The notes under the pieces: generated by a model
Database searches by the model: none
The model's input: the letters and a program-made list of their open reading frames with translations, nothing else
Told to the model about the DNA's origin: nothing
NCBI RefSeq assembly: GCF_058153355.1
Contig: NZ_CM177019.1
DNA: 64,000 bases
Reading direction: 5' to 3' (one strand)
Position numbers and translations under genes: made by a program
Shown: positions 50,627 through 55,843 of the stretch, in pieces
How positions within the stretch are numbered: the first letter of the stretch is position 1
Layout: every line of letters begins with the position of its first letter

Positions 50627-51658
50627 ATGTCTGCATTTACCCCGGCAAGTGAAGTCTTGCTGCGTCACAGTGATGATTTCGAACAAAGCCGTATTCTTTT
50701 TGCCGGAGACTTACAGGATGACCTGCCCGCGCGTTTAGATACCGCGGCCAGCCGTGCTCATACCCAGCAGTTCCACCACTGGCAGGTATTAAGCCGCCAA
50801 ATGGGTGATAACGCCCGTTTTAGTCTGGTCGCCACGGCGGATGACGTCGCAGATTGCGATACGCTGATTTACTACTGGCCGAAGAACAAACCGGAAGCCC
50901 AGTTTCAGTTGATGAATTTACTTTCTCTGCTGCCGGTGGGAACGGATATTTTTGTCGTTGGCGAGAACCGAAGCGGCGTGCGCAGCGCCGAGCAGATGCT
51001 GGCAGATTATGCACCGTTGAATAAGGTGGACAGCGCCCGTCGCTGTGGCCTCTATTTTGGTCGTCTGGAAAAACAGCCGGTATTTGATGCCGATAAATTC
51101 TGGGGCGAATACAGCGTCGATGGCCTGACGGTCAAAACGTTGCCGGGCGTGTTTAGCCGCGACGGTCTGGATGTCGGTAGCCAGTTGCTGCTTTCGACGT
51201 TAACCCCGCACACGAAAGGTAAAGTGCTGGATGTCGGCTGCGGTGCAGGCGTTCTTTCAGTTGCCTTTGCACGCCACTCACCGAAGATTCGTCTCACGTT
51301 GTGCGATGTTTCTGCGCCAGCAGTTGAAGCCAGCCGTGCAACACTTGCGGCCAACGGTATTGAAGGTGAAGTCTTTGCCAGCAACGTCTTTTCTGAGGTG
51401 AAAGGTCGTTTTGATATGATCATCTCCAATCCGCCGTTCCACGATGGGATGCAAACCAGTCTGGATGCAGCACAAACGCTGATTCGCGGCGCGGTGCGTC
51501 ATCTTAACAGCGGCGGCGAGCTGCGAATTGTAGCGAACGCCTTCCTGCCTTACCCGGACGTGCTGGATGAGACATTTGGCTTCCACGAAGTGATCGCGCA
51601 AACCGGGCGCTTCAAGGTGTATCGCGCCATTATGACCCGCCAGGCGAAGAAAGGTTAA
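50627..51658 (+). CDS. rsmC: 16S rRNA (guanine1207-N2)-methyltransferase
   Basis: 343 aa with AdoMet motif VLDVGCGAG and NPPFH. Confidence 0.9.
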
Positions 51659-51677
51659 GTATCCCGCCGCAAGCCTT

Positions 51678-51711
51678 GCCGGATGCGGCGTGCTTGCCTT
51701 ATACAACCTAC
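51678..51711. repeat. REP-like palindromic unit with conserved tail
   Basis: GCCGGATGCGGCGTGCTTGCCTTAT...; a paralogous copy with the same downstream tail (CCTA.AAAACCTGCA.GTTAG) occurs at 54148..54189. Confidence 0.6.
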
Positions 51712-51727
51712 AAAACCTGCAAGTTAG

Positions 51728-54090
51728 CCCTGTCGGGTAGCAGCGATTCATTACTGTCTCGCCGCCCCCTAAGAACGGTACGTGCGAGTTTCCCCGCATA
51801 CCGCTCAAGCCTTTATAAGCCTCCACCTTGTGGGAGACCAGCGTCATTACTATGTAGTTGTCGATGGCAGTTGGGATGGAGTAGGACTAAATTGCTCACA
51901 TCATCGCTACCGCCAAGAGATTTCTTGAGCAAATGATGAACATTCCATCCTGTATCGCGATTAATCGGTTGCTCACATAAAGGGCAGCGCGATCCTTGCC
52001 TTTTCCATATAGCGAGAATCCTTTTCTGCCCCTGTTGGGATTTCTTCCATGAGTAGTCCAGCCTTCTTTCGAAGTATGTTTCCCACTCGGGATCATATGG
52101 ATTTGCCGTTCCCTTTATTTTTATATAGCGATTAATATGGATGTCGCTGGCCCGGGACAGAACATATTTCCTACCCTCCGGATCGACTCCATAAAATCGA
52201 CCATGACACATTTTTATTGTCGTGTGGTACTTTCGGAAGATCCATCTCCGGCCTTTGCCGGGATGTCTCCTTCTGCACCACTGCCAGATTTTGCGCCAGA
52301 TTTGGTTGTCGACATAGTTAAATGTCTCTGCCGATGCTACATGTTGGTGATAGTTTGCCCACCCGGTGATGATTGGATTAAGCAGATTTATTAGCACCCA
52401 TGCAGGAACCGTTCGGTTACCTTCAATAGTCTCTCTGATCTTGCTAAGAAATTGTTTAACGTTTTTCTTGGCTGGTCTGATTATGAGTTTTCTACCGAAG
52501 CGTCGGACGTGCTGCCCAAGGAAATCAAATCCGTCAGTAATGTGAGTGATGACCGTTTTCTCTTCGGATAACGTCAGCCCTCTTTCTGCAAGAAATGATT
52601 TCACCAACGGAAGAACATTCTCCTCCAGAAGTTCTTTCGACTTTCCGGAAATGATGAAATCATCAGCATACCGGACGAAGTGAACCTGATGTTTCCTGAA
52701 TGTTTTTGAGCGTTTCGGACCAAAGCGATTTTGCAGCAGTCTTTCCAGTCCATCCAGGGCCATGTTTGCCAGAACTGGAGATATGATTCCTCCCTGGGGT
52801 GTACCCGAGAGAGTTTTGCTGAATATGCTTTTTTCGATGATCCCGGCTTTCAACCAATTACGGAGTATTTGCTTGTCCATAGGAATATTTTCAAGCAGCC
52901 ACTCGTGGCTAATGTGTTCAAAGCATCCTTTAATATCGCCTTCCAGAACCCATTTCGAGGCGTTCCGGGAACTATACATATTACATACCTGTTGAATGGC
53001 GTCAGCCGTACATCGCGCTGGTCTGAAACCATAACTGTTGTGATCTGCATTAGTTTCCGATACAGGCTCCAATCCCAGCAGATGCAGGGCCTGCATTGCC
53101 CTGTCAAGCATGACGGGGATTCCTAATGGTCTTTTCTTGCCATTAGATTTGGGTATAAAAACTCTTTTTAGCGGTAGGGGCTTGTACCCTTTTCGCCTGA
53201 GTTTGAATATCGCTTCCCATTTTGATTCTGGAGTACTCCAGATTTGACCATCAACTCCGGGGGTTTTACGCCCGCTATTTTCCGTAACTCGTTTCACCGC
53301 CAGTGCTCTGGCGCTGAATGAGCGAACCAGCAATCGTTGCAATCTACCGACTGTACGCCATTGCTGGTTACATGCCGCCTTTGCGATTCTTGTCTGTATG
53401 GTTTTAACGTGTTGATGGCATTTCTTCCAGTTAATGGAATGCCAACCTTTTCCGTTGATGACCGCAGTTACATTGTTAGATGTAATTTTCATACATGTCA
53501 TCCAAAGAAACCTTCGCAGATGTTTCGCAATTAAAGACCAGATGGAAGTCAGCACGGTTTCCCGTTAAGGCAAATATTGAACCTCTATCCGCACGATTAC
53601 AGTCCGGCTTTCGCTTTTTCCATCCTCCTTTACCCGCATTCTCATCAGTTTGCCTTACGGTGCCCCTGCCACTAGGGCGAGAATTCGGGCTTACCAAGTT
53701 CCGACCAACATACAAAGAACGGGTTAGGTTCTGTCTATCCGCCGGGGGAGTTATTGTCCATGTATTCCCACTACGAACAGGAATAGCCTTACCCCTTACC
53801 TTTTGGTGCAAGCCTATCAGCATCTTTGGCTCGTTCTCTGTTACGACGTTTAACGACAGTTCACTATGTTAACCATACCGCCCAGCCTAGCGCTCTCGCC
53901 GCATGATGCTTGTAGCGATCAGGTTTTCTCACGATTAACTGAAGCAATATTTGCTAAGCTACATTGTCCCAAGGGCTTCAGACAGAGCCGTTACCAGCTT
54001 TGCCTGCCTCAGTAGGCTACAACTAATGGAATAGTTGGTTTTATATAAATAATTTATCAAAACAATATGTTGGACGACTTCTTGTCGCAC
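51728..54090 (-). mobile_element. group II intron (~2.36 kb), boundaries approximate at the 3' end
   Basis: 5' end GTGCGACAAG (reverse complement of 54081..54090); RT/maturase/HNH ORF; canonical domain V GAGCGGTATGCGGGGAAACTCGCACGTACCGTTC (reverse complement of 51773..51806) 7 nt after the ORF stop. Confidence 0.75.
51813..53492 (-). CDS. group II intron reverse transcriptase/maturase with C-terminal HNH endonuclease domain
   Basis: ORF 51813..53555; RT motifs including YADDFII; maturase (X) region; C-terminal CPLCEQ...HH...NCHRQLH; likely start at MKITSNNVT. Confidence 0.85.
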   Translation of the reverse strand: MKITSNNVTAVINGKGWHSINWKKCHQHVKTIQTRIAKAACNQQWRTVGRLQRLLVRSFSARALAVKRVTENSGRKTPGVDGQIWSTPESKWEAIFKLRRKGYKPLPLKRVFIPKSNGKKRPLGIPVMLDRAMQALHLLGLEPVSETNADHNSYGFRPARCTADAIQQVCNMYSSRNASKWVLEGDIKGCFEHISHEWLLENIPMDKQILRNWLKAGIIEKSIFSKTLSGTPQGGIISPVLANMALDGLERLLQNRFGPKRSKTFRKHQVHFVRYADDFIISGKSKELLEENVLPLVKSFLAERGLTLSEEKTVITHITDGFDFLGQHVRRFGRKLIIRPAKKNVKQFLSKIRETIEGNRTVPAWVLINLLNPIITGWANYHQHVASAETFNYVDNQIWRKIWQWCRRRHPGKGRRWIFRKYHTTIKMCHGRFYGVDPEGRKYVLSRASDIHINRYIKIKGTANPYDPEWETYFERRLDYSWKKSQQGQKRILAIWKRQGSRCPLCEQPINRDTGWNVHHLLKKSLGGSDDVSNLVLLHPNCHRQLHSNDAGLPQGGGL

Positions 54091-54093
54091 TCG

Positions 54094-54181
54094 TAGGCCA
54101 GATAAGACGCGCCCGCGTCGCATCTGGCATCTGCACCCAAATACCGTGTCGGATGCGGCATGAACGCCTTATCCGACCTAT
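54094..54181. repeat. BIME: two REP units abutting the intron 5' end
   Basis: TAGGCCAGATAAGACGCGCCCGCGTCGCATCTGGCA and GTCGGATGCGGCATGAACGCCTTATCCGACCTAT. Confidence 0.7.
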
Positions 54182-54248: not shown

Positions 54249-54276
54249 TTGACGAAAAGCTGAAAACCACTAGAAT
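54249..54276 (+). promoter_or_regulatory. leu tRNA operon promoter (-35 TTGACG, 16-bp spacer, -10 TAGAAT)
   Basis: Strong sigma70 elements ~40 bp upstream of the first tRNA. Confidence 0.6.
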
Positions 54277-54317: not shown

Positions 54318-54404
54318 GCGAAGGTGGCGGAATTGGTAGACGCGCTAGCTTCAGGTGTTAGTGTCCTTACGGACGTGGGGGTTCAAGTCCCCCCCCTCGC
54401 ACCA
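54318..54404 (+). tRNA. leuQ: tRNA-Leu (anticodon CAG), copy 1
   Basis: 87-nt sequence GCGAAGGTGGCGGAATTGGTAGACGCGCTAGCTTCAGGTGTTAGTGTCCTTACGGACGTGGGGGTTCAAGTCCCCCCCCTCGCACCA, matching E. coli tRNA-Leu1 with encoded CCA. Confidence 0.95.
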
Positions 54405-54432
54405 AAAACCACGTTGATATTGCTCGCACTGG

Positions 54433-54519
54433 GCGAAGGTGGCGGAATTGGTAGACGCGCTAGCTTCAGGTGTTAGTGTTCTTACGGACGTGGGGGTTCA
54501 AGTCCCCCCCCTCGCACCA
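54433..54519 (+). tRNA. leuP: tRNA-Leu (CAG), copy 2 (one C to T difference in the variable arm)
   Basis: Same 87-nt sequence except GTGTTCTTACGG instead of GTGTCCTTACGG. Confidence 0.95.
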
Positions 54520-54552
54520 AACGAGGCGATATCAAAAAAGTAAGATGACTGT

Positions 54553-54639
54553 GCGAAGGTGGCGGAATTGGTAGACGCGCTAGCTTCAGGTGTTAGTGTC
54601 CTTACGGACGTGGGGGTTCAAGTCCCCCCCCTCGCACCA
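54553..54639 (+). tRNA. leuV: tRNA-Leu (CAG), copy 3
   Basis: Identical to copy 1. Confidence 0.95.
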
Positions 54640-54677: not shown

Positions 54678-54914
54678 TCATCCCTGATTCAAATTCATTA
54701 TCATCAGCATGATGCCAGCAATAAGCGCCAGGCATGATGGTAGCAAAATGTAATGCCGTAACTGTTTGTGATACAACATCACTGGCGTCATCACCAATCC
54801 CATCAGAATGACAATCCGCCACTGATCCGGCGATAAATCCGCATACATCAGCCCTGCAATCAGCAATCCCGGCAGCAACACTCCCCAACCACTGCCCAGC
54901 ATACGTTGCAACAT
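54678..54914 (-). CDS. yjjZ: small inner-membrane protein
   Basis: ORF 54678..55025; start MLQRMLGSGWGVLLPGLLIAGL gives 78 aa; divergent from fhuF. Confidence 0.7.
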   Translation of the reverse strand: MLQRMLGSGWGVLLPGLLIAGLMYADLSPDQWRIVILMGLVMTPVMLYHKQLRHYILLPSCLALIAGIMLMIMNLNQG

Positions 54915-54932
54915 GGTTTCATCTCTTTTATT

Positions 54933-55040
54933 GATAATGATAACTAATATCATATGATAATTTTTATCATTTGCAAGCCAGAGAAATCCCTTGCTATCGG
55001 GTAAACCTATCGTTAGGATTAGCAATCATTATCATTTAGA
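54933..55040. promoter_or_regulatory. Fur-box-rich regulatory region between yjjZ and fhuF
   Basis: GATAATGATAACTAATATCATATGATAAT (54933..54961) and GCAATCATTATCATTT (55022..55037) match the Fur consensus GATAATGATAATCATTATC. Confidence 0.7.
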
Positions 55041-55054
55041 TTACTATCACGATT

Positions 55055-55843
55055 ATGGCCTATCGTTCCGCACCGCTCTATGAAGATGTTATCTGGCGAA
55101 CGCATCTCCAGCCGCAGGATCCTGGACTTGCAGAAGCAGTACGGTCGACGATCGCAGAAAATCGTGAACATTTGCTGGAGTTTATCCGCCTGGATGAACC
55201 CGCCCCATTTAGTGCCCTGACGCTGGCGCAATGGTCATCACCGAATGCGTTAAGTTCTCTGTTAGCTGTTTATTCCGATCATATCTACCGCAATCAACCA
55301 ACGATGATCCGCGAGAATAAGCCGCTGATCTCCCTGTGGGCGCAATGGTACATCGGCCTGATGGTGCCGCCATTAATGCTGGCCCTGTTAACGCAGGAAA
55401 AAGCATTAGATGTGTCGCCGGAACATTTCCACGTTGAGTTTCACGAAACCGGACGCGCCGCCTGTTTCTGGGTCGATGTGTATGAAGATAAAAACGCAAC
55501 ACCACATTCACCGCAGCAGCGAATGGAAACGTTAATTAGCAAGGCGCTTGTTCCGGTTGTGCAAGCATTAGAAGCGACTGGAGAAATTAACGGTAAACTT
55601 ATCTGGAGTAATACCGGTTATTTGATCAACTGGTATCTGACTGAGATGAAACAGTTGCTCGGCGAGGCGACAGTTGAATCGCTGCGCCATGCCCTCTTTT
55701 TTGAGAAAACGCTCACTACCGGTGAAGATAATCCACTCTGGCGTACCGTGGTGCTGCGCGACGGCCTGCTGGTGCGCCGCACTTGCTGCCAGCGTTATCG
55801 CTTGCCGGATGTGCAGCAATGTGGTGACTGTACGCTGAAATAG
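55055..55843 (+). CDS. fhuF: ferric-siderophore reductase (2Fe-2S)
   Basis: 262 aa, C-terminal CCQRYRLPDVQQCGDC cluster motif. Confidence 0.9.
   Translation: MAYRSAPLYEDVIWRTHLQPQDPGLAEAVRSTIAENREHLLEFIRLDEPAPFSALTLAQWSSPNALSSLLAVYSDHIYRNQPTMIRENKPLISLWAQWYIGLMVPPLMLALLTQEKALDVSPEHFHVEFHETGRAACFWVDVYEDKNATPHSPQQRMETLISKALVPVVQALEATGEINGKLIWSNTGYLINWYLTEMKQLLGEATVESLRHALFFEKTLTTGEDNPLWRTVVLRDGLLVRRTCCQRYRLPDVQQCGDCTLK

Follow-up and report, generated by a model that had tools for sequence, protein, structure and literature searches.

The middle of the three tandem tRNA-Leu(CAG) genes in the window (the whole 64-kb stretch of DNA that was analysed) is almost certainly leuP, a minor natural isodecoder of tRNA-Leu(CAG) (tRNA-Leu1) that carries an old, tolerated and probably near-neutral polymorphism among the paralogous copies of Enterobacterales, and its single divergent base is neither an error nor a new mutation of this strain. 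As judged by comparison with other E. coli sequences, the array in the window is the majority natural haplotype.

Three tandem tRNA-Leu(CAG) genes and the variant base

Over the full window ARAGORN predicts exactly three tRNA genes, all of them tRNA-Leu(CAG) on the + strand. The genes and the spacers between them are as follows.

54318-54404, + strand: copy 1, leuQ, tRNA-Leu(CAG) with C48 (ARAGORN, alignment, Rfam, identity to K-12)
54405-54432, + strand: leuQ-leuP spacer (spacer 1), 28 nt, identical to K-12
54433-54519, + strand: copy 2, leuP, tRNA-Leu(CAG) isodecoder with T (U) at position 48 (ARAGORN, alignment, Rfam, 100% identity to K-12 MG1655 leuP)
54520-54552, + strand: leuP-leuV spacer (spacer 2), 33 nt, with an A-run at 54534-54539 of 6 A against 7 in K-12
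54553-54639, + strand: copy 3, leuV, C48, same sequence as copy 1 (ARAGORN, alignment, Rfam, comparison with K-12)

Each copy is 87 nt in length, and all three score 48.5 bits with the Rfam tRNA model RF00005, for which the gathering score is 29. In each of them ARAGORN places the anticodon cag at position 35 in a loop of 7 nt. The discriminator A and a genome-encoded CCA are present, all copies ending in GCACCA, and a long variable arm that forms a stem-loop is found in every copy, copy 2 included.

Alignment of the three 87-nt genes reveals position 48 as the sole variable column, with C in copies 1 and 3 and T in copy 2. An earlier reading of the window from its letters alone (the sequence-only reading) had claimed that copies 1 and 3 are identical and that copy 2 differs from them by one base in the variable arm. 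Both claims are borne out by the alignment, and the coordinates and strings given there are right. In the window the T sits within GTGTTCTTACGG against GTGTCCTTACGG. The variant base and its partner in the variable-arm stem are located as follows.

54480, + strand: gene position 48, in the 5' strand of the variable-arm stem; T where copies 1 and 3 have C (alignment)
54487, + strand: G, gene position 55, partner of position 48 (evaluation of the cloverleaf and of the isolated hairpin)

In the acceptor stem of all three copies, A5 faces C79 (54437 and 54511 in copy 2), a mismatch that Rfam marks as non-canonical. A run of eight C is present inside each of the genes (54389-54396, 54504-54511 and 54624-54631), and runs of 7 or 9 C are seen at these genes in some public assemblies and in some other species. 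Such 8-C runs have been reported as the main indel hot spot among the tRNA genes of E. coli in mismatch-repair-defective lines (PMC8510543).

Identity with the leuQ-leuP-leuV operon of K-12

Direct alignment shows that the three tRNA genes and spacer 1 are identical to those of K-12 MG1655. The sequence-only reading had proposed alignment with the reference leuQPV as a check, and in this alignment the T is also present in leuP of K-12 MG1655, with identical sequence around it. From the promoter region to leuV only two differences from K-12 are present, namely one base upstream of the -35 hexamer and the 1-nt indel in the A-run of spacer 2. The base upstream of the hexamer (at about 54234) is C in the window and T in K-12. 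The order of alleles is C-T-C in both the window and K-12, and T48 is confined to the middle copy.

The genes in the window are followed by CCAAAAACC (leuQ), CCAAACGAG (leuP) and CCAATTATC (leuV), the same 3' flanks as reported in PMC2190699. Comparison with the text of that paper and with K-12 finds the published flanks of the tandem triplet in the window, with CCAAUUAUC after leuV. The paper describes a leuQ leuP leuV operon with spacer sequences and gene order as in the window (PMC2190699). The K-12 identity and the matching 3' flanks thus identify copy 1 as leuQ, copy 2 as leuP and copy 3 as leuV.

The chromosomal context is also that of leuQ-leuP-leuV in K-12 MG1655, with rsmC located upstream and yjjZ and fhuF downstream. 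Pfam domains in the flanking open reading frames (MTS and MTS_N for RsmC, DUF1435 for YjjZ, and FhuF) agree with the K-12 annotation. The neighbouring genes and a promoter-like site are located as follows.

50627-51658, + strand: RsmC open reading frame (Pfam)
54249-54276, + strand: promoter-like site of the sigma-70 type, TTGACG, 16-nt spacer, TAGAAT (consensus scan, 10/12)
54678-55025, - strand: YjjZ (DUF1435), within a listed open reading frame (Pfam)
55055-55843, + strand: FhuF open reading frame (Pfam)

The promoter-like site lies 42 nt upstream of leuQ, is followed by GCGCCTCC and is identical to the K-12 sequence. From this sequence we infer that 54249-54276 functions as a promoter. In K-12 the three tRNAs are co-transcribed and are separated by RNase P (PMC2190699). 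Given the sequence identity to K-12, one precursor starting from the promoter at 54249-54276 would carry all three genes in the window, and RNase P would separate them.

A group II intron and REP elements upstream of the array

A complete group II intron is located between the stop codon of rsmC (51658) and the leuQ promoter, in the orientation opposite to both. Its parts are as follows.

51732-54090 (approximate), - strand: complete group II intron (parts found by Rfam and Pfam)
51732-51808, - strand: intron domains V-VI, RF00029 (Rfam)
51813-53555, - strand: intron open reading frame of 580 aa with RVT_N, RVT_1, GIIM and HNH domains (Pfam)
53891-54038, - strand: intron D1-D4, RF02012 (Rfam)
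54090, - strand: 5' end of the intron, GTGCG

Close copies of the intron (97% identity) are present in only 2 of 5,426 complete E. coli genomes, in both cases on a plasmid beside hok, and at the chromosomal site between rsmC and leuQ the intron was found in none of the 5,426. The insertion is flanked by REP-type elements at 54096-54178 (- strand) and 51665-51730 (Rfam naRNA4/CssrE, 66.5 bits). The arrangement of REP elements upstream of the leuQ promoter is unlike that of K-12, where one REP unit is present on the other side.

Structure and expected behaviour of the U48 tRNA

The stem of the variable arm consists of four base pairs, in which positions 46-49 (GUCC) pair with positions 54-57 (GGAC) around a 4-nt loop, UUAC. 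The pair between positions 48 and 55 is C-G in leuQ and leuV and a U.G wobble in leuP, so that pairing is kept at the third position of the stem in copy 2. Unconstrained minimum free energy folding yields a cloverleaf for neither the C48 nor the U48 copy, as is usual for unmodified tRNA sequences. Since unconstrained folding was unusable for the comparison, an explicit cloverleaf and the isolated arm were evaluated instead. When both are constrained to the cloverleaf, C48 comes out at -30.0 kcal/mol and U48 at -27.1 kcal/mol. For the isolated variable arm the same hairpin is predicted for both, at -5.2 kcal/mol (C48) and -2.3 kcal/mol (U48). Replacement of the C-G pair by the wobble would thus retain both hairpin and cloverleaf and lower the predicted stability by about 2.9 kcal/mol.

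In leuP nothing has changed in the anticodon CAG, the D and T loops, the discriminator A or the encoded CCA. The sequence of the long variable arm is not known to serve as an identity element for the LeuRS of E. coli. Because these features are unchanged and the enzyme is not known to read this arm, the U48 tRNA should be charged and should decode normally. Its identity to K-12 leuP likewise leads us to expect that it is charged by LeuRS and reads CUG as its neighbours do. The U48 species would thus be expressed, aminoacylated and used in decoding in the strain of the window.

Distribution of the two alleles within E. coli

For a single base the question is not one of chance but of whether the same base recurs elsewhere, and it does. 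Spacer 1 (54405-54432) was used as the unique context for population counts, in a 91-nt query that joins the spacer to leuP with T. At 99% identity or more, this query matches 4,526 of 5,429 complete E. coli records, with K-12 MG1655 among the exact matches, and every listed full-length match is exact. The same 91-nt query with C in place of T matches 563 records at the same threshold, of which about 453 are partial matches to the tRNA only, in genomes without the spacer. After removal of these partial matches, true C alleles in the leuP context number roughly 110 of the 5,429 records. T is present in the first copy in at most 61 of 5,429 records and in the third copy in at most 62 of 5,429. 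The count for the third copy was made with a query on the 5' side, which replaced a query on the 3' side of leuV whose counts were distorted both by partial matches and because the C-run and the T/C-rich flank were masked as low-complexity sequence.

Individual records illustrate the range of arrays in E. coli:

K-12 MG1655 reference: C-T-C
O111:H- 11128: C-T-C, with an extra C26T in the middle copy
Nissle 1917: C-T-T
FHI_NMBU_03: T-T-C
2015C-4136CT1: T-C, two copies
NZ_CP025268.1 (MG1655-derived record): C-C-C with a 9-C run, possibly an assembly artefact
AVS0744: one copy, C

This polymorphism of the array points to gene conversion and unequal crossing-over, and for some of the records to errors of assembly at homopolymers. 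The shifting of the allele between copies within E. coli fits near-neutral interchangeability of the two forms. In strain 7784, two tRNA-Leu genes are present at the argX-operon site, where leuT is normally alone.

Further C to T changes are seen in the middle copy only, each leading to a G.U pair in the D-stem. These are C26T in leuP of O111:H- 11128 (L002, position 664) and C24T in leuP of E. albertii (L008), and the flanking copies are unaltered in both.

Distribution in other species

The GTDB species representatives were scanned for exact matches to a 30-mer that includes the T, so that the scan covers T-bearing loci only. The 30-mer occurs at no fewer than 120 loci, and among the matches listed all named isolates belong to the Enterobacterales. 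Complete tandem triplets among the matches listed number 34, all of them T-bearing; 31 are C-T-C, two are C-C-T and one is T-T-C. The T-bearing arrays among the matches listed are located between rsmC and yjjZ/fhuF, in synteny with the window (tblastn with RsmC, YjjZ and FhuF of the window). The genera with syntenic arrays include Escherichia, Citrobacter, Salmonella (subsp. arizonae), Enterobacter, Klebsiella, Raoultella, Kosakonia, Phytobacter, Pseudocitrobacter and Intestinirhabdus. In the position-by-position comparison across species, spurious differences arise at the 3' end where the length of the C-run varies, and rows beyond position 48 were ignored for the assignment of alleles.

The single-copy T loci that were checked with ARAGORN represent a leuT-type gene of the argX-hisR-leuT-proM operon. 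They belong to Enterobacter cloacae, Citrobacter sp. R56, Raoultella ornithinolytica, Klebsiella oxytoca and Escherichia whittamii. The Morganellaceae (Xenorhabdus, Proteus, Morganella) have a two-copy array after rsmC, usually with one C and one T. The Morganellaceae copies, both C48 and U48, carry A5G together with C79T (e.g. L015 and L054), which gives G5.U79 where the window copies have A5.C79, both sides of the pair having changed. From these sequences, the C48/U48 dimorphism would be either old or recurrent and well tolerated.

Error, new mutation or maintained variant

The sequence-only reading had left two explanations side by side, a natural isodecoder and a sequencing difference. The presence of the same T in K-12 leuP, in 4,526 of the 5,429 E. 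coli records counted above and in the middle copy of orthologous arrays from many genera supports the first of these and leaves the second without support. An error of sequencing or assembly at 54480, for example through mis-polishing among three near-identical repeats, is one rival explanation. Polishing easily introduces artefacts where identical repeats stand in tandem, and the 7-C and 9-C runs and the all-C array of NZ_CP025268.1 are probable artefacts at this very locus in public records. However, an error in the window would need to recreate exactly a common natural allele, at the same base and in the same copy, and we consider this explanation to have next to no chance of being correct. 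The argument that leads us to reject it is comparative but very strong. It is hardly more credible that the T is a new, strain-specific mutation marking the onset of decay in a redundant middle copy. The additional C to T changes in leuP of O111:H- 11128 and E. albertii could indicate a slightly relaxed constraint on this copy. The change at position 48, however, is not specific to the strain, being common to K-12 and other genera, and this already refutes a new mutation. Moreover, leuP retains every other feature of a tRNA, has the same Rfam score as its neighbours and shows conservation at every base in different genera.

It is also conceivable that U48 is a functionally specialised isodecoder which selection keeps beside C48 for its processing, modification, stability, fragment production or stress behaviour, an explanation that we regard as unlikely. 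Both alleles coexist in the Enterobacteriaceae and in the Morganellaceae, and the Morganellaceae copies differ at position 48 despite their common A5G and C79T. The order C-T-C prevails across genera in the T-bearing triplets listed, and many genera retain U48 in the leuT-type copy as well. This conserved order hints at more than drift. On the other hand, the allele moves or vanishes in E. coli with no obvious consequence, as seen in the C-T-T array of Nissle 1917 and in the T-T-C, T-C, C-C-C and single-copy C arrays, while leuT has C in E. coli and T in other genera. The change itself is the mildest possible at position 48, a transition that keeps the pairing, and the prevalence of C-T-C comes from a scan that took in T-bearing loci only. 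The wider proposal holds that selection rather than drift maintains C48 and U48, that both forms predate the split of Enterobacteriaceae and Morganellaceae, and that the U.G pair gives the minor isodecoder a distinct property. It draws on the fact that U48 holds the middle position in most genera of the Enterobacteriaceae despite visible gene conversion, and we think it improbable as well. A natural, long-lived and probably near-neutral isodecoder is the best-supported reading of leuP in the window.

Prior knowledge and significance

The leuP variant has long been known and is an ordinary natural isodecoder. Two papers already record leuP as the only tRNA-Leu(CAG) gene with a single-nucleotide difference in the variable arm. 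A tRNA-seq preprint lists leuP apart from the identical set of leuQ, leuT and leuV (bioRxiv 10.1101/2020.02.21.958157). For the window, our analysis dispels a possible concern that a tandem repeat was poorly assembled, and it assigns the three genes to leuQ, leuP and leuV. The locus can also be seen as a small natural system for the study of gene conversion versus selection in tRNA isodecoders, because a one-base dimorphism is held in the middle copy across genera and yet is occasionally spread or erased between copies in E. coli.

Comparison with known systems

The closest known counterpart of copy 2 is leuP of K-12, which has the same 87-nt sequence with T48, the same promoter hexamers, the same neighbours yjjZ and fhuF, with rsmC upstream, and the same flanking spacers except for the A-run. 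The K-12 locus differs from the window in having 7 A rather than 6 A in spacer 2 and in the arrangement of the upstream REP region, and the window differs from K-12 in the group II intron present between rsmC and the promoter. None of these differences touches the tRNA genes. Compared with leuQ, leuV and leuT of E. coli, which represent the major isodecoder, leuP has the same anticodon and is identical at 86 of 87 positions, the major form having C48 and leuP having U48; of these genes, leuQ and leuV share a transcript with leuP. The leuT-type copy of Enterobacter, Citrobacter, Klebsiella, Raoultella and E. whittamii has the same U48 isodecoder sequence as copy 2 of the window. However, it belongs to another operon at another chromosomal position, and leuT of E. 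coli itself has C48 (L003).
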